64,000 bases of DNA. It comes from a virus. This document shows positions 55,740 to 62,057 of the stretch, one piece after another. The DNA lies in the IMG/VR virus record IMGVR_UViG_3300037092_000015, positions 1-64,000 of that record; one strand, given 5' to 3'. The number at the start of each line of letters is the position of its first letter. Position 1 is the first letter of the stretch. Below the pieces are notes generated by a model. The model saw only the letters and a list, made by a program, of their open reading frames with translations, had not been told where the DNA came from and ran no database searches. The position numbers and the translations under genes were made by a program.

Positions 55740-56030
55740 GCGTCGAACACCTTTCCTGCGCTAGCCACGATGCGGCCACGCTTGTCGGTCAGCCTTTTGT
55801 TGTTTGCATTTGTTGTCAGCCCCATATTGCTCCCGTTATCTTTTCCTCCTTACTACCCCAAAACCCCATCGCCCGGTTCCTGGGGCGTGGCCTGCTCGTC
55901 TTGAACTCCTTGGCTATCTGCCGCGTCTGAGCCTCGACGAACACGTCGCCAGACTCCCACCTTATCGGCTCCCCGTTGCGACCGATGTCGGTCTCGCAGC
56001 CTGAAACTTCTAATGTCCTATGCATTGCGC

Positions 56031-56057
56031 TGTTATGTAACTTTGGTTAGGGGTCAT
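56031..56057 (+). other. Left boundary of the cassette array; attI/attG-like simple site
   Basis: ATGTAAC-TTTG-G|TTAGGGGTCAT; GTTAGGGGTCAT (56046-56057) is the exact reverse complement of ATGACCCCTAAC (56624-56635). Confidence 0.55.
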
Positions 56058-56710
56058 AGCAGCACGCCTTGGTTTGCCTCGCGTTCCAGACGGGAGCAGG
56101 CGGTTGCGTAGTGTGTCGGATTCTTCTCGATGCCCACGAAGTTGCGGCGAGTTTTCAGACAGGCCAGCCCTGTGCTTCCGCTGCCCATCCACGGGTCTAG
56201 CACGGTGTCGCCTTCCTTCGTTACGTCGAGGATGATTTGTTGCATCAGTCGCACCGGCTTCTGTGACGGATGCCCTGTCCATTCGTCGCCAGTGTATGAC
56301 GCCGCGACGGTCGAGTTGATCAGGTATTGCCGATAGACTTTGTAGTTCGCCTGACCGTTGCGCTCGTAGATGCGTTCGTATTGGCTTCCGCAGCCTGTCT
56401 TTTTATCCCAGATGTGGATTGCCGTGTAGTCGAGCGGGAAGTCCGCCTTCGCAGACCAGAAGATGAGTTGCCGACATTCTATCAGGCGCAGAGATTCGAG
56501 CAGCCCGTCCTCGTATCCGTAGGCTTCCGCGTGGTAGTCAGGATATGGCGGGTCACAGATTATCACGTCGCACTTCATCGGGAGCATCGTCTGGCAGTCG
56601 CCGAGTATGAGAGTCGCCACGACATGACCCCTAACAAATCGCTTCAGCGAACCGCCGTTGGGCGTCGCAGGCGAGTTCGGGAGCGTTAGCTCGGCGGTCG
56701 CTGAGCTCAT
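56054..56710 (-). CDS. DNA N6/N4 methyltransferase (cassette 1)
   Basis: DPPY, HPSQKP, DPWMGSGST; ATG lies inside attC1. Confidence 0.88.
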   Translation of the reverse strand: MSSATAELTLPNSPATPNGGSLKRFVRGHVVATLILGDCQTMLPMKCDVIICDPPYPDYHAEAYGYEDGLLESLRLIECRQLIFWSAKADFPLDYTAIHIWDKKTGCGSQYERIYERNGQANYKVYRQYLINSTVAASYTGDEWTGHPSQKPVRLMQQIILDVTKEGDTVLDPWMGSGSTGLACLKTRRNFVGIEKNPTHYATACSRLEREANQGVLL

Positions 56711-56719
56711 ACGTTAGAC
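56629..56719 (+). repeat. attC site 1
   Basis: CCCTAAC-AAATC-GCTTCAG...CTGAGC-TCATAC-GTTAGAC. Confidence 0.85.
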
Positions 56720-56867
56720 AGCCGGGCCGCACGTTGGGTTTGCGTTTGGTTTTCGACCAGCGGGCGGCGACCGCAGCGCGGGCTTGCTCGCTGGTGCGGG
56801 CTTTTGCCGCGCCAGTCCCAGCAGACCCTCCGAGTTTTCCGAGCGCGACCGCGGCGGGATTTTTCAT
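56631..56867 (-). CDS. Small basic protein (cassette 2)
   Basis: MKNPAAVALGKLGG..ARAAVAARW. Confidence 0.7.
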   Translation of the reverse strand: MKNPAAVALGKLGGSAGTGAAKARTSEQARAAVAARWSKTKRKPNVRPGCLTYELSDRRANAPELACDAQRRFAEAIC

Positions 56868-57133
56868 TGAACTAAACATTTTGCCGCGCCGAGCGCGTCT
56901 GCCGTGATTCCAATCCGAAGCATATCTTCCGCCGCCCTGCGGGATTTTGGCCCGTAGTAATTTTCCCCCAGGAAGCTGCCAGCCTTGCAGTCAATCCATT
57001 CGATTTGGTCGGGCGCGATTTGCACCCCATCGCGGTCGCAGATTTGTTCGCCTCGAATTTCGACACCCTCACTCACAACCAACATTTTCGTTACCGGATC
57101 AATCCGGTTTTTTATTCTGGCACAGGTATTCAT
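56864..57133 (-). CDS. Hypothetical protein (cassette 2)
   Basis: ATGA-coupled to the next gene. Confidence 0.6.
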   Translation of the reverse strand: MNTCARIKNRIDPVTKMLVVSEGVEIRGEQICDRDGVQIAPDQIEWIDCKAGSFLGENYYGPKSRRAAEDMLRIGITADALGAAKCLVQ

Positions 57134-57172
57134 ATTTTTAAGCAGGGATTAGTTTCCTCTCCCTTTGATTTT

Positions 57173-57496
57173 TTAATAGCGTTCGCCGGGAAGGTCTGGG
57201 GTTGCCCGGAGTTTGGGGCGCGCAAGGAAGGCTTTGTTGCTCGCTTCGCGAGCCGCTTTGCCAGCCTCACGTTGAGCCGCCGCCGCCGATTCTTCTTGCT
57301 GATAGGCGGCCAATTGTGCGGTATGCACACGAGCGCCAACCACTTTACCTTCGGGTGAATATTTGCTTCCGACCAGATGAAACGGAATGGCTTCACCTTT
57401 TGCGGTTTTGAAGCCGCCTTCCGGTTGAAGGATTGCATCTGTCCACTGTCCGCCGCCGGTTTGTCCGGCTGGCACTCTTGGTTCGTCTTCGTTCAT
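57173..57496 (-). CDS. Small protein with an N-terminal EPRVPAGQTGGGQW tag (cassette 2)
   Basis: Tag shared with 57761-58075. Confidence 0.7.
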   Translation of the reverse strand: MNEDEPRVPAGQTGGGQWTDAILQPEGGFKTAKGEAIPFHLVGSKYSPEGKVVGARVHTAQLAAYQQEESAAAAQREAGKAAREASNKAFLARPKLRATPDLPGERY

Positions 57497-57544
57497 TTTT
57501 TCTTTCGTTGGCTTGGCTTACTGGGCCTCGCCCTTTATGCCTGC

Positions 57545-57573
57545 AATATACGCAAGCGATTGCGTATATGCAA
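57545..57573 (-). promoter_or_regulatory. Cassette-internal promoter TTGCAT-17-TATATT with a palindromic operator
   Basis: ATATACGCAA-GCGA-TTGCGTATAT spans the spacer. Confidence 0.7.
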
Positions 57574-57635
57574 ACAAAATCTTCATTTATTTACACACTC
57601 ACAAAACCATTGATTCTATTGACTCAAACCGGCCT

Positions 57636-57735
57636 GCCCAACAAATCGCTGCACGCAATGACCGCCGCATTGGGCGTCATTGGCGAGTTCGGGCATCGTG
57701 GGCGCGGCGTTCATGCGTGAGCTTGGTCGTTGGGC
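57636..57735 (+). repeat. attC site 2
   Basis: GCCCAAC-AAATC-GCTGCAC...GTGAGC-TTGGTC-GTTGGGC. Confidence 0.85.
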
Positions 57736-57760
57736 GCTTAGTCACTCCGCGCCCGATGCG

Positions 57761-58075
57761 TTACGGGTTTTTCGTGTAGTCCTTTTCCCCCGCCTTTTGG
57801 ATATCCTCGAAAAATCCAGGCCGATGCACTCGCGCCACCGGCGAGTTGAACCACGGATTGTTGCGTTGCGCCCAGTCCACGGCCTTCTCCCCAGCGCGCG
57901 GCAGTGCGGCCTGCGCCTCTTTGATGGCTTGCGGAATATGCGTTTGCTCGATGTTTGTCCGCTGAGGCAGGCTTTGGAGTCTGCCGATTTCGGAGCTGAT
58001 GACCGCTCCCGTCTCGGGCATGAATTGCCCGCCTTCCGGCGATCCCGCCGGGACTCTTGGTTGATCTGGATTCAT
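57761..58075 (-). CDS. Small protein with an N-terminal NPDQPRVPAGSPEGGQF tag (cassette 3)
   Basis: CAA-rich leader, tag motif. Confidence 0.72.
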   Translation of the reverse strand: MNPDQPRVPAGSPEGGQFMPETGAVISSEIGRLQSLPQRTNIEQTHIPQAIKEAQAALPRAGEKAVDWAQRNNPWFNSPVARVHRPGFFEDIQKAGEKDYTKNP

Positions 58076-58098
58076 TGTGTGTTTTTGTTGTTCGACGC

Positions 58099-58193
58099 GC
58101 CCAACCAATCACTGGAGCGAATGCAGGCGGGCGCTGCCTGTTCGCAAATTCGGATGTCAGTGGCCGCCTGCATCGCTCAGTTCTGCGTTCGGC
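58099..58193 (+). repeat. attC site 3
   Basis: GCCCAAC-CAATC-ACTGGAG...CTCAGT-TCTGC-GTTCGGC. Confidence 0.85.
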
Positions 58194-58465
58194 ATCTGAA
58201 ATTCCAATTGCCTCTGGACCGGCTTGTCGAACGTTTTCCACGCTGGGTCAGTACAGAAGGGATGCAGGTCCACGAAGGCATTGTAGTAGATCCCCCAGGA
58301 GTGTGTGATGCAGATTCTGAGATTCAGTCGGAAGTTGTATTCTTCCGTAGTCAGGTATCGGTCATCATCGGCCTCCGAATGCCGAACCAGACGCTCCACA
58401 CGAACCGCCGCCAGCCTCTCGGACTCCGGGAGGCTGTTTCGTTTTCGGGCGGCAGTGGTGTTCAT
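58157..58465 (-). CDS. Hypothetical protein (cassette 4)
   Basis: Starts in attC4 and ends in attC3 (PNAELSDAGGH). Confidence 0.65.
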   Translation of the reverse strand: MNTTAARKRNSLPESERLAAVRVERLVRHSEADDDRYLTTEEYNFRLNLRICITHSWGIYYNAFVDLHPFCTDPAWKTFDKPVQRQLEFQMPNAELSDAGGH

Positions 58466-58494
58466 GGCGGCGGTCGGTGAGCTACTTGTTCGGC
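58381..58494 (+). repeat. attC site 4
   Basis: GCCGAAC-CAGAC-GCTCCAC...GTGAGC-TACTT-GTTCGGC. Confidence 0.85.
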
Positions 58495-58799
58495 GCGCGC
58501 AGGCATTCCTCCCACGTCATGCCGCAGACTTTCTTGTAATGCTTTGCCGAGGCCACCAGTTCCCGCGCGGTCTTTCCCGACGCGACGACCTGCTCTCGCG
58601 TGTAGTCGAAGTTCACCGGCTTTCCGTCTTGGTCCTGCCATTGGCCTTCGCTGCGCTCGTTCCAGCCCAGGACCAGGAAGTGGGTTCCGTAGGGAGAAGT
58701 GATGCGCGCCGCGTCGCACTTGAACATGCGGACGAATCGCCGAACCAAGCGCTCCAGACAACCGCCGACGGGCGTCTCTTTTGAAGTCGTAGCGTTCAT
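58482..58799 (-). CDS. Hypothetical protein (cassette 5)
   Basis: Starts in attC5 and ends in attC4 (PNK). Confidence 0.7.
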   Translation of the reverse strand: MNATTSKETPVGGCLERLVRRFVRMFKCDAARITSPYGTHFLVLGWNERSEGQWQDQDGKPVNFDYTREQVVASGKTARELVASAKHYKKVCGMTWEECLRAPNK

Positions 58800-58829
58800 G
58801 TCGGCGGTGTCTGAGCTTGGTCGTTCGGA
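58739..58829 (+). repeat. attC site 5
   Basis: GCCGAAC-CAAGC-GCTCCAG...CTGAGC-TTGGTC-GTTCGGA. Confidence 0.85.
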
Positions 58830-59176
58830 GATGCATTAATGCGCTTGATAATACAGCTTGTGCAGAGCGTTCTCCCTCGTGTGGTCGTTGGCAGACTCCC
58901 CATCCGGCCTGTGTTCTGCGGAAATGCTGCGATGATATTCCTGGCATTGCTCCGCGCTTTGGATAGCTGCTCACGCTTGTTCCCCCCCAGCCTAGGGGCG
59001 ACCAGTGCAGATAGCGCGTCCAGCAGGATTCGCTCTCGCGCTCGGACAGCCGTTCCCAGTCCTGAGACTGATGTTGGTCCGCGGACGATACCATTGCATA
59101 GGTCGGTGATCTGGCTCTCAATCGCAGAACCAAGCGGGTCGAGCGAACTGCCCGATTGCGTCTCAGGTTTATTCAT
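58796..59176 (-). CDS. Hypothetical protein (cassette 6)
   Basis: ATGA couplings inside attC6 and attC5. Confidence 0.6.
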   Translation of the reverse strand: MNKPETQSGSSLDPLGSAIESQITDLCNGIVRGPTSVSGLGTAVRARERILLDALSALVAPRLGGNKREQLSKARSNARNIIAAFPQNTGRMGSLPTTTRGRTLCTSCIIKRINASPNDQAQTPPT

Positions 59177-59215
59177 AGCGTTTTGGCGGGCAGTCGCTCA
59201 CCCGCGGCGTTCGGT
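59124..59215 (+). repeat. attC site 6
   Basis: GCAGAAC-CAAGC-GGGTCGAG...CTCACCC-GCGGC-GTTCGGT. Confidence 0.8.
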
Positions 59216-59472
59216 GGAAGCGGTTGACCGCATTCCTTGCAACAGCTTGGGGCCTTCTGCTTCTCTGCCAGTTCTGCGTCGTGGACCAGCATCGCCGCTG
59301 CCAACCTTCGGCTGGCCATCGTGAAACGGCGCCACAAATATTCTTCGTGCGTTTGCAGGCACGGCCTTGGTCTGTTCGTATGCGCCAGCGCCCATGCATC
59401 CCTCCACCAAACGCACCGAACCAATCGCGGCAGCGAACCGCCGACTGGCGTTGTTGCAATAGGGGTGTTCAT
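59173..59472 (-). CDS. Hypothetical protein (cassette 7)
   Basis: Starts in attC7 and ends in attC6; CKECG. Confidence 0.65.
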   Translation of the reverse strand: MNTPIATTPVGGSLPRLVRCVWWRDAWALAHTNRPRPCLQTHEEYLWRRFTMASRRLAAAMLVHDAELAEKQKAPSCCKECGQPLPPNAAGERLPAKTL

Positions 59473-59508
59473 TGGTGGTTATCGCCGCCGCTCAGCTTGT
59501 CGTTGGGG
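59415..59508 (+). repeat. attC site 7 (degenerate)
   Basis: ACCGAAC-CAATC-GCGGCAG...CTCAGC-TTGTC-GTTGGGG. Confidence 0.7.
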
Positions 59509-59535
59509 CGCTTAGTCACTCCACGCCCAGTTACG

Positions 59536-59811
59536 CTATTGCGCGGTGTTTTCACACGCCGGTAGTGCCGATGTGTCGGCGACTTTCTTGATGTCCCCAA
59601 GCTTGGCTCGTACGTCGTCAATGTGCAGGCATTCCGCCAGGTTGCATCCAGCTTGGTCTGCTACCGGCACGGCTAGGTTGCCGTTGCAGGCGTCGTTTCC
59701 AGGAGTCGCATCGTGGAGTATTCCGACGATGGACTTCACGTAGTATCCGGGCGGCACGATGCGGAGCACGCGGTCCCCGTTCTTTGCTTCTCTTCCGTTT
59801 GCGTAGTGCAT
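59536..59811 (-). CDS. Small SH3-like hypothetical protein (cassette 8)
   Basis: MHYANGREAKNGD..GILHDATPGNDACNG..ECLHIDD. Confidence 0.75.
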   Translation of the reverse strand: MHYANGREAKNGDRVLRIVPPGYYVKSIVGILHDATPGNDACNGNLAVPVADQAGCNLAECLHIDDVRAKLGDIKKVADTSALPACENTAQ

Positions 59812-59837
59812 ACTTATGTTCTGTGTTTACCGTCGCG

Positions 59838-59932
59838 CCCTAACCAATCACTAGAGCGAATGCAGGCGGGCGCTGCCTGTTCGCAAATGGGTTTGTCAGT
59901 GGCCGCCTGCATCGCTCAGTTCTGTGTTCGGT
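59838..59932 (+). repeat. attC site 8 (near-identical to attC3)
   Basis: CCCTAAC-CAATC-ACTAGAG...CTCAGT-TCTGT-GTTCGGT. Confidence 0.85.
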
Positions 59933-60123
59933 GATGTGTTTTCCACGGTCACATACCCAAGGAATGCCATCGTTTTCCCGCAACAGCGAGGCATGGGAGC
60001 ATCTGCCCCGAGATAGGCAGGCACATATTCCTCTCGCCCACACTGTCGGCAGTAGTGCTTGAAGCATCTCACCGAACGAGCCGCGTCAGCCAACGGCGGG
60101 GTTACGCTTTTAGTGTTCTTCAT
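59896..60123 (-). CDS. Small Zn-ribbon protein (cassette 9)
   Basis: CRQCG..PRCCGKTM; ends PNTELSDAGGH in attC8. Confidence 0.7.
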   Translation of the reverse strand: MKNTKSVTPPLADAARSVRCFKHYCRQCGREEYVPAYLGADAPMPRCCGKTMAFLGYVTVENTSPNTELSDAGGH

Positions 60124-60162
60124 ACGTCCTTTGGCCCGCCGTGGCTGCGCTCTGTGTTATGC
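60071..60162 (+). repeat. attC site 9
   Basis: ACCGAAC-GAGCC-GCGTCAG...CTGCGC-TCTGT-GTTATGC. Confidence 0.82.
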
Positions 60163-60246
60163 CCTACCATCGGAAGGTTCCCGTATCGTCGATTTTGCGG
60201 GTGAGCCACCAGACCACGATCATCAGTATTATCAGTTCCATATGGT

Positions 60247-60441
60247 TTATTTATTCCCTCTGAGCAGGCGGTAGGCGCGGATCGCTACAGCGTCCCACAC
60301 GGCTACTGATTCGCTTGGCAGGTCTCTGAATTTACAGAGGGGGCGCCCCCAGATTGATTTTGGCTGGCTCAGCATTTCTTTCCGGCTAGCGTTGTAGAGT
60401 TTGATAGCCAGTGTTCGGGCTTCATCTAGTTTTTGTTTCAT
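60247..60441 (-). CDS. Hypothetical protein (cassette 10)
   Basis: ATGA coupling. Confidence 0.6.
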   Translation of the reverse strand: MKQKLDEARTLAIKLYNASRKEMLSQPKSIWGRPLCKFRDLPSESVAVWDAVAIRAYRLLRGNK

Positions 60442-60671
60442 GGCAGTAGGTCGTTGAGGCGCTTCTGGAGCGCGGTTGCCAGCACGCTAACCTTTGTCTG
60501 TTGCTCTGAGGCTGGCAGGTTTTCGATTTCGTAGCACAGGTTCAGCGCGGCGCTTCTGGCGTCCCCGATTCCCCGGTGCAGTTTGATTTCTTTCGCAGTC
60601 GTAGCCGTGGCCACCTGCGAGAGTTCCAGATACAGGCTGTTGATAGTGTCGAGTTCCATAGGCATAACCAA
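60438..60671 (-). CDS. Hypothetical protein (cassette 10)
   Basis: SLYLELSQVATATTAKE..CYEIENLPASEQQTKVSV. Confidence 0.65.
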   Translation of the reverse strand: MVMPMELDTINSLYLELSQVATATTAKEIKLHRGIGDARSAALNLCYEIENLPASEQQTKVSVLATALQKRLNDLLP

Positions 60672-60720
60672 TCACGCCACCGAACCGGCTCCGCGCCGGT
60701 CGGTGAGTTCCTTGTTATGC
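60662..60720 (+). repeat. attC site 10 (59 bp)
   Basis: GCATAAC-CAATC-ACGCCAC...GTGAGT-TCCTT-GTTATGC. Confidence 0.85.
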
Positions 60721-60950
60721 CTGCACCCCAGGACGTGAGTGATGGTGCCGCCATTCGGGCCGGGGTCGTTGAGGCACTCGGGGCACTGCACGGCCATTTT
60801 GTCCGCGCAGGTTTTTCCCGGCGCATATGTCGCGCAGTTCGAGCATTCACCGAGCAGATACCATCCGCACCAGCACTTTGCTGCCGCTGGCAGGTTGCTC
60901 AGCATGTCCATGTATTCTTGTTGGTCAGAGTTAAACATCGCAGCGCTCAC
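60672..60950 (-). CDS. Cys-rich hypothetical protein (cassette 11)
   Basis: CWCGWY..CSNC..CPEC; ends in attC10. Confidence 0.65.
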   Translation of the reverse strand: MSAAMFNSDQQEYMDMLSNLPAAAKCWCGWYLLGECSNCATYAPGKTCADKMAVQCPECLNDPGPNGGTITHVLGCRHNKELTDRRGAGSVA

Positions 60951-61630
60951 AATTCATCCGGTTCGCAGGCGTTGTCGAAGTGCCGCTTGTCCTTCTCGAC
61001 GCCGATAAATTTACGACCAGTCCGCAGGCAGGCGATTCCCGTGCTGCCGCTGCCCATGTATGGGTCTAGCACCGTTGCCCCGACCGGCACGCCAACTTGT
61101 TCCAGACACCACGCCATCAGCGCGACCGGCTTTTGGTTGCTGTGGATTCGCGGCTCGTCCTTTTCCTTCGCTTGCGCACCGTTCCAATAGCGCGTTTTCA
61201 GCCGCAGAACGCCGTCCTGGTTTGTCCACGCCGTCTCGCCGTCGGCCTGGTCGTTGCTTGGGATGCCTTCGCGCTTGTCCCATATCAGCCACCGTGAGGA
61301 GTTCGGCAGGCGGTTCGCGTAGTGATTCGCGCCCCACAGCACCACAATTGGATAGCCGAGCCACGGGCGCGGGTCGAACGGCTTGTCATCGCCCATGATT
61401 GCCTCGCCATCAGTGCCGAGTTTCACGCCGCCTTTACGCGCTCCGTGGCAGTAGGCGATTCCATACGGCGGGTCGCTGATTAGCGCGTCCGCGTCTATCC
61501 ACGGAAGCTCCAGACAGTCGGCATTGATTAGTCGGCAGTCTCCGATTGTGACCCCTAACAAGTCGCTGCACGCAATGCCCACCGCGTTCACGGTTTGCTT
61601 GCAATCGGGTGCTGTTGGCGCGGTGGTCAT
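60947..61630 (-). CDS. DNA N6/N4 methyltransferase, C-terminus apparently truncated
   Basis: DPPYG, HSNQKP, DPYMGSGST; ends abruptly FDNACEPDEL; ATG in attC11. Confidence 0.85.
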   Translation of the reverse strand: MTTAPTAPDCKQTVNAVGIACSDLLGVTIGDCRLINADCLELPWIDADALISDPPYGIAYCHGARKGGVKLGTDGEAIMGDDKPFDPRPWLGYPIVVLWGANHYANRLPNSSRWLIWDKREGIPSNDQADGETAWTNQDGVLRLKTRYWNGAQAKEKDEPRIHSNQKPVALMAWCLEQVGVPVGATVLDPYMGSGSTGIACLRTGRKFIGVEKDKRHFDNACEPDEL

Positions 61631-61650
61631 GCGTGAGCTAGTCGTTATCC
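61553..61650 (+). repeat. attC site 11
   Basis: CCCTAAC-AAGTC-GCTGCAC...GTGAGC-TAGTC-GTTATCC. Confidence 0.85.
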
Positions 61651-61965
61651 TTCATGCTGTGTAGGTATTCCGTGGTCAGGGTGCTGGTATTCTGGATACT
61701 TGCGGCCCTTGACAGGCTCTCCGCGCAGCGGAGCTCCGCACTGCTCCATACATGCCACTCCAGTTGCTGTGATCTGTCGGATTTCATGCAGCGCCTTGTC
61801 GTCGCCGTGCCCTGTTACCCACGCATGGCGGGCATCGTTGCACAGTTTTTCGATGATGAGCAGCCACTCGGCTACACAGTGTTGATGATCGGGCCACTTC
61901 TGTTCTTGGTAGGCGCGTTCGCCTTCGATTGCATGTCTTACGTCTGCATCTATATGTCGATTCAT
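61645..61965 (-). CDS. MazG-like (all-alpha NTP pyrophosphohydrolase-like) protein, last cassette
   Basis: ERAYQEQKW..EWLLIIE..ALHEIRQITATGVACME. Confidence 0.65.
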   Translation of the reverse strand: MNRHIDADVRHAIEGERAYQEQKWPDHQHCVAEWLLIIEKLCNDARHAWVTGHGDDKALHEIRQITATGVACMEQCGAPLRGEPVKGRKYPEYQHPDHGIPTQHEG

Positions 61966-61966
61966 A

Positions 61967-62057
61967 GGATAACGAGTCGGTTCAGCGACTGCCGGGTTCG
62001 CGTTTGGGTTTCAGTTCGGGAGTCAGCGGCCCGGCATCGCTGACCTCTTTGTTCCGG
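61967..62057 (+). repeat. attC site 12
   Basis: GGATAAC-GAGTC-GGTTCAG...CTGACC-TCTTT-GTTCCGG. Confidence 0.82.

Follow-up and report, generated by a model that had tools for sequence, protein, structure and literature searches.

Highly similar attC sites across the cassettes of one array are an established feature of chromosomal integrons (PMC8352920). In sedentary chromosomal integrons, the Vibrio cholerae repeats being an example, unrelated ORFs carry highly similar attCs, which has long been a hint that one attC type is re-used per lineage when cassettes are made. The sites of these integrons have R'' and R' boxes, L stems with bulged bases, and a crossover point between the G and the TT of the R' box (written G/TT below). 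In class 1 integrons the attC follows the ORF, which is encoded on the attC top strand. Integrons and CALINs (at least two attC sites close together, with intI absent nearby) have been described in phage genomes, and some phages encode an integron integrase (Qi et al. 2023, PMC9892861). As far as the accessible portion of that paper goes, phage attCs are substrates of IntI1, the phage arrays include attC clusters without an integrase as well as DNA methyltransferase cargo, and two virulent-phage arrays have the orientation typical of bacterial arrays (PMC9892861).

The phage-borne array described here shares with chromosomal integrons the similar attCs on unrelated ORFs, the two boxes, the bulged L stems and the G/TT crossover. 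Unlike in those integrons, most of its attCs are diverse (median identity 60%) and only one pair, attC C and attC H, is near-identical; the shared module runs past R' to include an R stem of about 10 bp and a 17-nt tail, and the cargo is antisense. It resembles the phage arrays of Qi et al. in the absence of an integrase and in its methyltransferase cargo, but it has 12 sites and all of its cargo is inverted, and a modularity of chassis and cargo with a conserved tail is not described in the accessible portion of that report (PMC9892861). Similar attCs on unrelated cargo are not new in kind as a clue to cassette origin (PMC8352920). One attC module on unrelated genes is long known from bacterial integrons; here its boundaries are unusually sharp and recurrent. 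As far as checked, the new elements are the extension of the conserved module beyond R' (the long R stem and the tail), the precise and recurrent junctions between cargo and chassis, a cargo family with close relatives outside cassettes, and cassette gaps at the population level.

The stretch of DNA analysed (the window, 64,000 nucleotides) belongs to an IMG/VR record of 75,477 bases, linear and estimated to be 81% complete, from a peat phage. The minus strand of the record encodes TerL, TerS and two N6/N4 DNA methyltransferases; the TerL is only 30-34% identical to the terminases of actinobacterial phages. The array was delimited by a structural scan, alignment, covariation, covariance model R1 and the junction of the first cassette:

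56046 to 62057, plus strand: whole cassette array, 12 cassettes

Every cassette ended in an attC, and for each of these the attC top strand was the plus strand of the window. The first cassette begins G/TTAGGGGTC at 56046, and no attC precedes it. The 12 sites lie within 5.4 kb, in one orientation throughout, and, with intI absent nearby, form a CALIN in a record that is possibly incomplete. Stop-free frame length was uninformative about the coding strand, and strand calls were taken from homology because both strands are open in this GC-rich DNA. In a typical cassette the gene reads along the attC top strand and the attC lies on its 3' side. Here the methyltransferase (a Pfam match), the ORF of the MHY family, to which the cassette 8 cargo belongs, and the other ORFs lay on the strand opposite the attC model; in contrast to class 1 cassettes, these ORFs run on the bottom strand and have their 5' ends beside R''. 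Scans of the array for promoters and terminators returned nothing exceeding background. Upstream ORFs terminate within the attC loop, and several ORFs begin within it.

Each repeat has the same layout: the AAC box leads through a 5-nt spacer into a stem, and from a variable loop the return stem leads through a 5-6-nt spacer to the GTT box. The AAC and GTT boxes were invariant in all 12 sites and conformed to the R'' and R' consensus (RYYYAAC and GTTRRRY). The stem has two bulged bases, at columns 16 and 24, on the 5' arm of the plus strand. In the 12-site alignment 13 of the 15 stem pairs covaried, with both sides changed and pairing kept; in other words, structure rather than sequence is conserved and the extrahelical bases lie on one arm, as in the L'' and L' arms of attC sites. 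The structural scan placed 11 of the 12 sites in a single block and gave one weak match elsewhere in the 75-kb record, and covariance model R1, which was trained solely on the 12 phage sites, recovered all 12 and none beyond them in the record, with strand-specific matches. The same phage-trained model detected the attC of aadA5 (31.5 bits, E=1.8e-7) and that of dfrA17 (19.3 bits, E=3e-4) in the class 1 integron of the E. coli plasmid pKSE-D08_1, in both cases directly downstream of the gene and on its coding strand. From the covariation and this cross-detection, the repeats are therefore attC sites by structure, and since the class 1 matches are on the coding strand, the plus strand of the window is the canonical top strand.

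Analysis of the individual cassettes focused on the third and eighth, which the first-pass annotation had singled out as one chassis carrying two unrelated genes. Their features are:

57730 to 58187 (458 nt): cassette 3, bounded by crossover points
57729 to 57737, plus strand: R' box closing attC B and start of cassette 3, crossover G/TT at 57729/57730 (from complementarity and a circular-permutation fold)
57738 to 57754, plus strand: 17-nt tail of cassette 3, TTAGTCACTCCGCGCCC; a contig of run X3 diverges exactly after 57755
57761 to 58075, minus strand: cargo ORF of cassette 3, 104 aa, starting MNPDQPRVPAG
58076 to 58095, minus strand: A/C-rich leader of this ORF, without a Shine-Dalgarno sequence (sequence reading)
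58096 to 58193, plus strand: attC C with extended R'' CGCGCCCAAC; attC 58099-58193, AAC 58103-58105, R' GTT 58187-58189
59503 to 59926 (424 nt): cassette 8, bounded by crossover points
59502 to 59511, plus strand: R' box closing attC G and start of cassette 8, crossover G/TT at 59502/59503
59512 to 59528, plus strand: 17-nt tail of cassette 8, TTAGTCACTCCACGCCC; a contig of run X4 diverges exactly after 59528
59536 to 59811, minus strand: cargo ORF of cassette 8, 91 aa, starting MHYANGREAKNGD; a phage family found mostly outside cassettes
59812 to 59834, minus strand: A/C-rich leader of this ORF, without a Shine-Dalgarno sequence (sequence reading)
59835 to 59932, plus strand: attC H with extended R'' GCGCCCTAAC; attC 59838-59932, AAC 59842-59844, R' GTT 59926-59928

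Cassettes 3 and 8 are integron-type cassettes of a phage-borne array and share one common recombination module. Repeat search and pairwise alignment showed 92% identity between 58100-58192 and 59839-59931. Over the full sites attC C and attC H had an identity of 0.91, against 0.73 for the runner-up pair in the array and an array median of 0.60, and because they are 91% identical they are taken to share a recent chassis ancestor. In attC C two bases bulge from the L stems, and the loop is conserved. The differences between C and H fall on the variable R'' base, one bulged base, the loop, a spacer and flanking bases, and every predicted L-stem pair is free of them, in keeping with continued selection for structure. 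Both cassettes open G/TTGGG(G)CGC, and TTAGTCACTCCRCGCCC comes next. In the 64 kb the 21-nt start motif GCGCTTAGTCACTCCRCGCCC has exactly two copies (57734-57754 and 59508-59528); the count stays at two when 3 mismatches are allowed, and 0.03 copies are expected by chance. A mosaic relationship of attCs A, B and K was also considered, but the relation was too weak to use.

No alignment was obtained for the DNA between the shared ends of the two cassettes, so that the alignment suggested earlier for defining breakpoints separates common ends from a differing interior. This differing part is a leader-plus-ORF module antisense to the attC top strand. BLASTP of the two ORF proteins gave no alignment at E<=100, and the objection that they might be distant homologues was not borne out. 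Pfam and PHROGs searches assigned no family to the cassette 3 ORF, the cassette 8 ORF or seven other cassette ORFs. The placement of each ORF inside its own cassette and behind its own A/C-rich leader, read from the sequence, agrees with the first description, as do the near-identical attCs and the common start.

L008, an independent metagenome contig, holds a second copy of cassette 3 at 98.5% identity, preceded there by a different attC and followed by different DNA; the attC of that copy is identical to attC C, and the identity ends at the R' of attC C. Population-level evidence came from contigs of other peat metagenome runs, and four runs cover the pieces. A chance similarity, or a misassembly across repeats, can practically be dismissed: the general risk that 95-nt repeats bring to short-read assemblies is all that speaks for it, and against it stand the two copies of the motif where 0.03 were expected, the L008 copy and the contigs of the four runs.

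The sequence at the cassette start was compared with the attC sites in 50 cassettes, from the window and seven related loci. The 7 nt following the GTT at the start of a cassette were complementary to the 7 nt preceding the AAC at 5.92 of 7 positions on average for the cassette's own attC, versus 2.92 of 7 for that of the next cassette; therefore the R stem is about 10 bp long and is split by integration. The first 9 or so bases of each cassette are the other half of the R stem of its own attC, and the 17-nt tail alone is extra. In cassette 3 the 3' half of the R stem belonging to that cassette is TTGGGCGC, which is complementary to 58097-58105 (6/7 with its own attC versus 3/7 with the adjacent one), and in cassette 8 the same holds for TTGGGGCGC (6/7 versus 2/7). 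The crossover thus lies at G/TT of R', with the first bases belonging to the cassette's own attC. The earlier picture of a cassette with two independent shared ends is not supported by this arrangement, in which the start is the split-off half of the R stem plus the tail. In the circular cassette the chassis is predicted to be one contiguous hairpin with the 17-nt tail attached. The end of the cassette 3 tail, GCGCCC, can also pair with GGGCGC of R' to form a local hairpin. The tail was considered as a mini-cassette bounded by a second GTT, and this was rejected: the R' extension before the tail pairs with the R'' beyond the cargo.

Two contigs of the other peat runs have whole cassettes missing. 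A contig of run X5 joins 57728 to 58488, without cassettes 3 and 4, and one of run X3 joins 58186 to 58488, without cassette 4. Both joints fall within the GTT of R' boxes, and comparison of these sequences indicates that whole cassettes probably move by integrase-type crossover at G/TT of R'.

The 75-kb record of the window contained no tyrosine recombinase in searches with TIGR02249 and PF00589, and so is not a complete integron; activity in this phage would need an integrase acting in trans or encoded in the unsampled ~19% of the genome. In the related phage record L001 (43.5 kb, estimated complete), a 330-aa protein scored 347 bits on the integron-integrase model TIGR02249, whose cut-off is 265 bits, and its gene adjoins the array, divergently oriented and on the strand opposite the attC top strand, as in class 1 integrons. 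Over its full length the L001 integrase shares 44% identity with IntI1. A similar gene in record L005 scored 245 bits, below the cut-off. The integrase gene that marks a complete integron is present in the L001 record, and the L005 record comes close. In the related phages the cargo genes run against the attC top strand and parallel to intI, the reverse of the class 1 arrangement. Bacterial loci with relatives of the L001 integrase (41-47% identical, from Anaerolineales and others) gave no match to the phage attC model, a result that does not cover the attCs of these loci themselves.

Five other viral contigs and 11 metagenome contigs carry the 21-nt motif immediately behind an attC R'. The tail was present on at least 14 cassettes among the matches listed, as well as in L014 and L023, and the cargo on these tail-type chassis comprised about five unrelated families, so the wider search with the chassis motif that had been recommended did yield further cargo variants. 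Cassettes with the tail start mostly have the same attC subtype, with the R'' extension GCGCCCNAAC and the loop motifs TTCGCAAATTC and GTCAC; in L023 the tail is paired with an attC outside this subtype. Other pairs repeat the pattern of cassettes 3 and 8; in L001_1 and L004_7, for example, the chassis were 84% identical and the cargo unrelated. The tail itself was near-invariant across cargo families, at 20 of 21 positions, while the attC stems drift, which argues that it is under selection. As read from the printed flanks, every context examined has a stop codon 5-8 nt beyond the tail. A contig of run X3 and one of run X4 match the window through the tail and then diverge, at 57755 and 59528, respectively, and among the contigs of other peat runs breaks recur at the tail end. 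A search of viral contigs with a 24-nt piece of the C/H attC arm matched nothing outside the record itself, and a scan of genome contigs with the tail found nothing. A 15-nt tail pattern gave mostly chance matches, with L023 as the sole real array.

The reverse pattern, similar cargo on different chassis, also occurred. L004, L010 and L023 have MHY ORFs with about 90% nucleotide identity on chassis only 64-72% identical, and the similarity drops just after the AAC of R''. In a contig of run X5 the match to attC C begins only at the AAC of R'' (58103), the preceding DNA being different. The identity of attC H to attC C (0.91) exceeded its identity to the attCs that other MHY cassettes carry (0.62-0.73). 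The finding of near-identical cargo with different cores indicates that attC cores, too, have been exchanged among cargo modules. Chassis, attC core and cargo thus have separate histories and are separable modules.

The two cargo genes differ in how they occur elsewhere. The cassette 3 ORF is a near-orphan with no relative in viral contigs; its sole other relative, P0002, is partial and 85% identical. The cassette 8 ORF had 27 homologues in phage contigs without an attC within 1.5 kb. Its closest non-cassette relatives have 78-79% amino acid identity, and their match is confined to the ORF, plus a possible resemblance over ~20 nt of the leader. In a maximum-likelihood tree the cassette 8 protein grouped with non-cassette genes (79% amino acid identity), and the other cassette-borne MHY copies, about 50% identical to the cassette 8 ORF, formed a separate clade with 100/100 support. 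No bootstrap tree united all of the cassette-borne MHY copies in one group. Within the cassette clade, one cassette-borne copy had as its sister a non-cassette gene with a Shine-Dalgarno leader (L046), and the homology did not extend beyond the ORF. From the tree positions of the cassette 8 ORF and the L046 gene, this family has moved at least twice between cassette and non-cassette settings. Where the cargo is homologous, such a switch could take place by recombination within the conserved ends of the ORF.

Several routes could produce one chassis with unrelated genes. The first-pass annotation had proposed that new cassettes arise by swapping an ORF into an existing frame, and what stands of this is that chassis and cargo are separable, that about five cargo families occur on one type of chassis, that the tail end is a recurrent breakpoint and that one cargo family changed context at least twice. 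As the origin of the cassettes the swap is less secure, since the data also fit an exchange of attC cores or a templated attachment. A replacement of the leader-plus-ORF module in an existing cassette is tentatively favoured as the source of new tail-type cassettes, at slightly short of an even chance. Tail-type chassis would then be re-used for new cargo: during co-infection, the leader-plus-ORF module of an existing cassette would be replaced by another phage gene through illegitimate recombination or, if the incoming gene were a homologue, through homologous recombination within the ORF, giving a new cassette that the integrase would then spread. In the group IIC-attC intron model of Leon and Roy (2009), an existing attC is reportedly joined to a new ORF, and by analogy the replacement view may resemble it. 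No intermediate, donor junction or microhomology at the breakpoints came to light for such a replacement. The sharp boundaries at the level of the ORF could also come from selection on compact cassettes rather than from a mechanism. Exchange of attC cores or gene conversion between cassettes that were already of the tail type but had diverged attCs, by homologous recombination or by integrase crossovers at both R'' and R', would need no ORF swap and, by itself, could be the source of the likeness of C and H. This is rather unlikely, although the 90%-identical MHY ORFs whose similarity is lost after the AAC of R'', the X5 match from 58103 only and the position of H nearer to C than to other MHY attCs are what it predicts. 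It leaves unexplained why unrelated ORFs have the tail and R extensions in common, both of them outside the core, and attC C is identical in L008 despite the different array context there. C and H also differ at several unpaired positions and at no L-stem pair, so their likeness is not that of a very fresh conversion.

Doubtful to a somewhat greater degree is a lineage-specific process that attaches the same attC-plus-tail template to different genes, with no older cassette involved. The near-invariance of the tail (20/21) beside attC stems that drift with compensating changes would suit such a template, as would the constant tail-to-stop distance of 5-8 nt and the non-cassette homologues that match in the ORF only, apart from the possible ~20-nt leader resemblance; however, neither an enzyme nor a template has been identified, the cores found on the same tail vary widely, the L023 attC lies outside the subtype, and a functional tail under strong selection would produce the same pattern. 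That the repeats are expression signals of the phage, such as coupling or terminator hairpins, rather than recombination sites is very improbable. ORFs do end and start within the attC loop and all of the cargo would be transcribed through the sites, but as a sole account it is contradicted by the gaps of whole cassettes with GTT joints, the split R stem, the integrase adjoining the array in relatives and the cross-detection of class 1 attCs. The attC sites may have an additional role in expression.

The cassette 3 and 8 pair is one case of a wider shuffling of modules in phage-borne integrons and nothing special in itself. The point where module and cargo meet is resolved to a few bases, 5-8 nt past the stop codon on one side and at the leader beside R'' on the other, which turns a general clue on cassette origin into specific junctions that can be tested. 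More speculatively, and with a low probability, the tail-type chassis may serve a phage integron lineage as a dedicated adaptor, with the extended R stem and the tail marking the gene-joining site of a cassette-forming activity. If so, peat phages would show cassette genesis under way with the donor genes still identifiable outside cassettes, and the unit joined would be an ordinary phage gene, leader plus ORF, in inverted orientation.

All cargo ORFs in the window array (56046-62057) and in the similar arrays of two related phage records, L001 (34-6874) and L005 (1-2354), ran antisense to the top strand of the attC sites. In both L001 and L005 the integron integrase gene (intI) was adjacent to the array and the cargo ORFs shared its direction; in L001, 23 nt lay between the end of the first cassette and the intI start codon. 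This arrangement is the opposite of that in class 1 integrons, in which the cargo and the attC model are on one strand.

The minus-strand ORFs upstream of the attC sites ran through the attC arm to a TGA stop in the loop (window 56629-62057), a stop that corresponded to a conserved GTCA on the plus strand. Example positions for overlaps between ORFs and attC sites were:

58157-58193, ORF overlapping attC
58797-58829, ORF overlapping attC
59470-59510, ORF overlapping attC

Several window ORFs had their ATG start inside the attC loop and read out via the opposite arm, which gave them N-terminal peptides in common, such as TPVGGSL.RLVR. The cassette ORFs at 57173-57496 and 57761-58075 were alike solely in an N-terminal motif, MN.D.PRVPAG...GGQ(W/F), and were otherwise unrelated.

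Two cassettes of the window array encoded N6/N4 DNA methyltransferases:

56054-56710, methyltransferase cassette, first in the array
60947-61630, methyltransferase cassette

They were 71% identical across 111 nt and had the R'' extension GACCCCTAAC in common, with different attC cores. The first (start region 56020-56056) began at G|TTAGGGGTC, a perfect complement to the R'' extension of the same cassette (56626-56635). It was preceded by non-attC DNA, with a 69-aa ORF and terS adjoining. A homologous methyltransferase cassette was also first in the L005 array, yet had intI as its neighbor, and homology to L005 ended at the cassette boundary (56044).

In peat metagenome run X5, one contig kept the basal stems of the attC site ending cassette 3, with a 15-nt insert in place of the 51-nt apical part (window 58121-58173); this form is a shortened variant of that site. 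In run X1, from the probable source sample, a second contig had AT-rich, non-attC DNA (..GTGTAACCTAAGAATG|GTT) ahead of the cassette 3 start (57729). This cassette may also occupy a secondary or attI-like site in a different element.

The cargo ORF of cassette 8 (59536-59811) belonged to the MHY(A/R)NGREAKNGD protein family, to which neither Pfam nor PHROG assigned a family. Its members, including the homologs at loci L026-L052, were about 80-100 aa long with conserved Cys and His residues, and were spread widely across uncultured phages of 42-72% GC.
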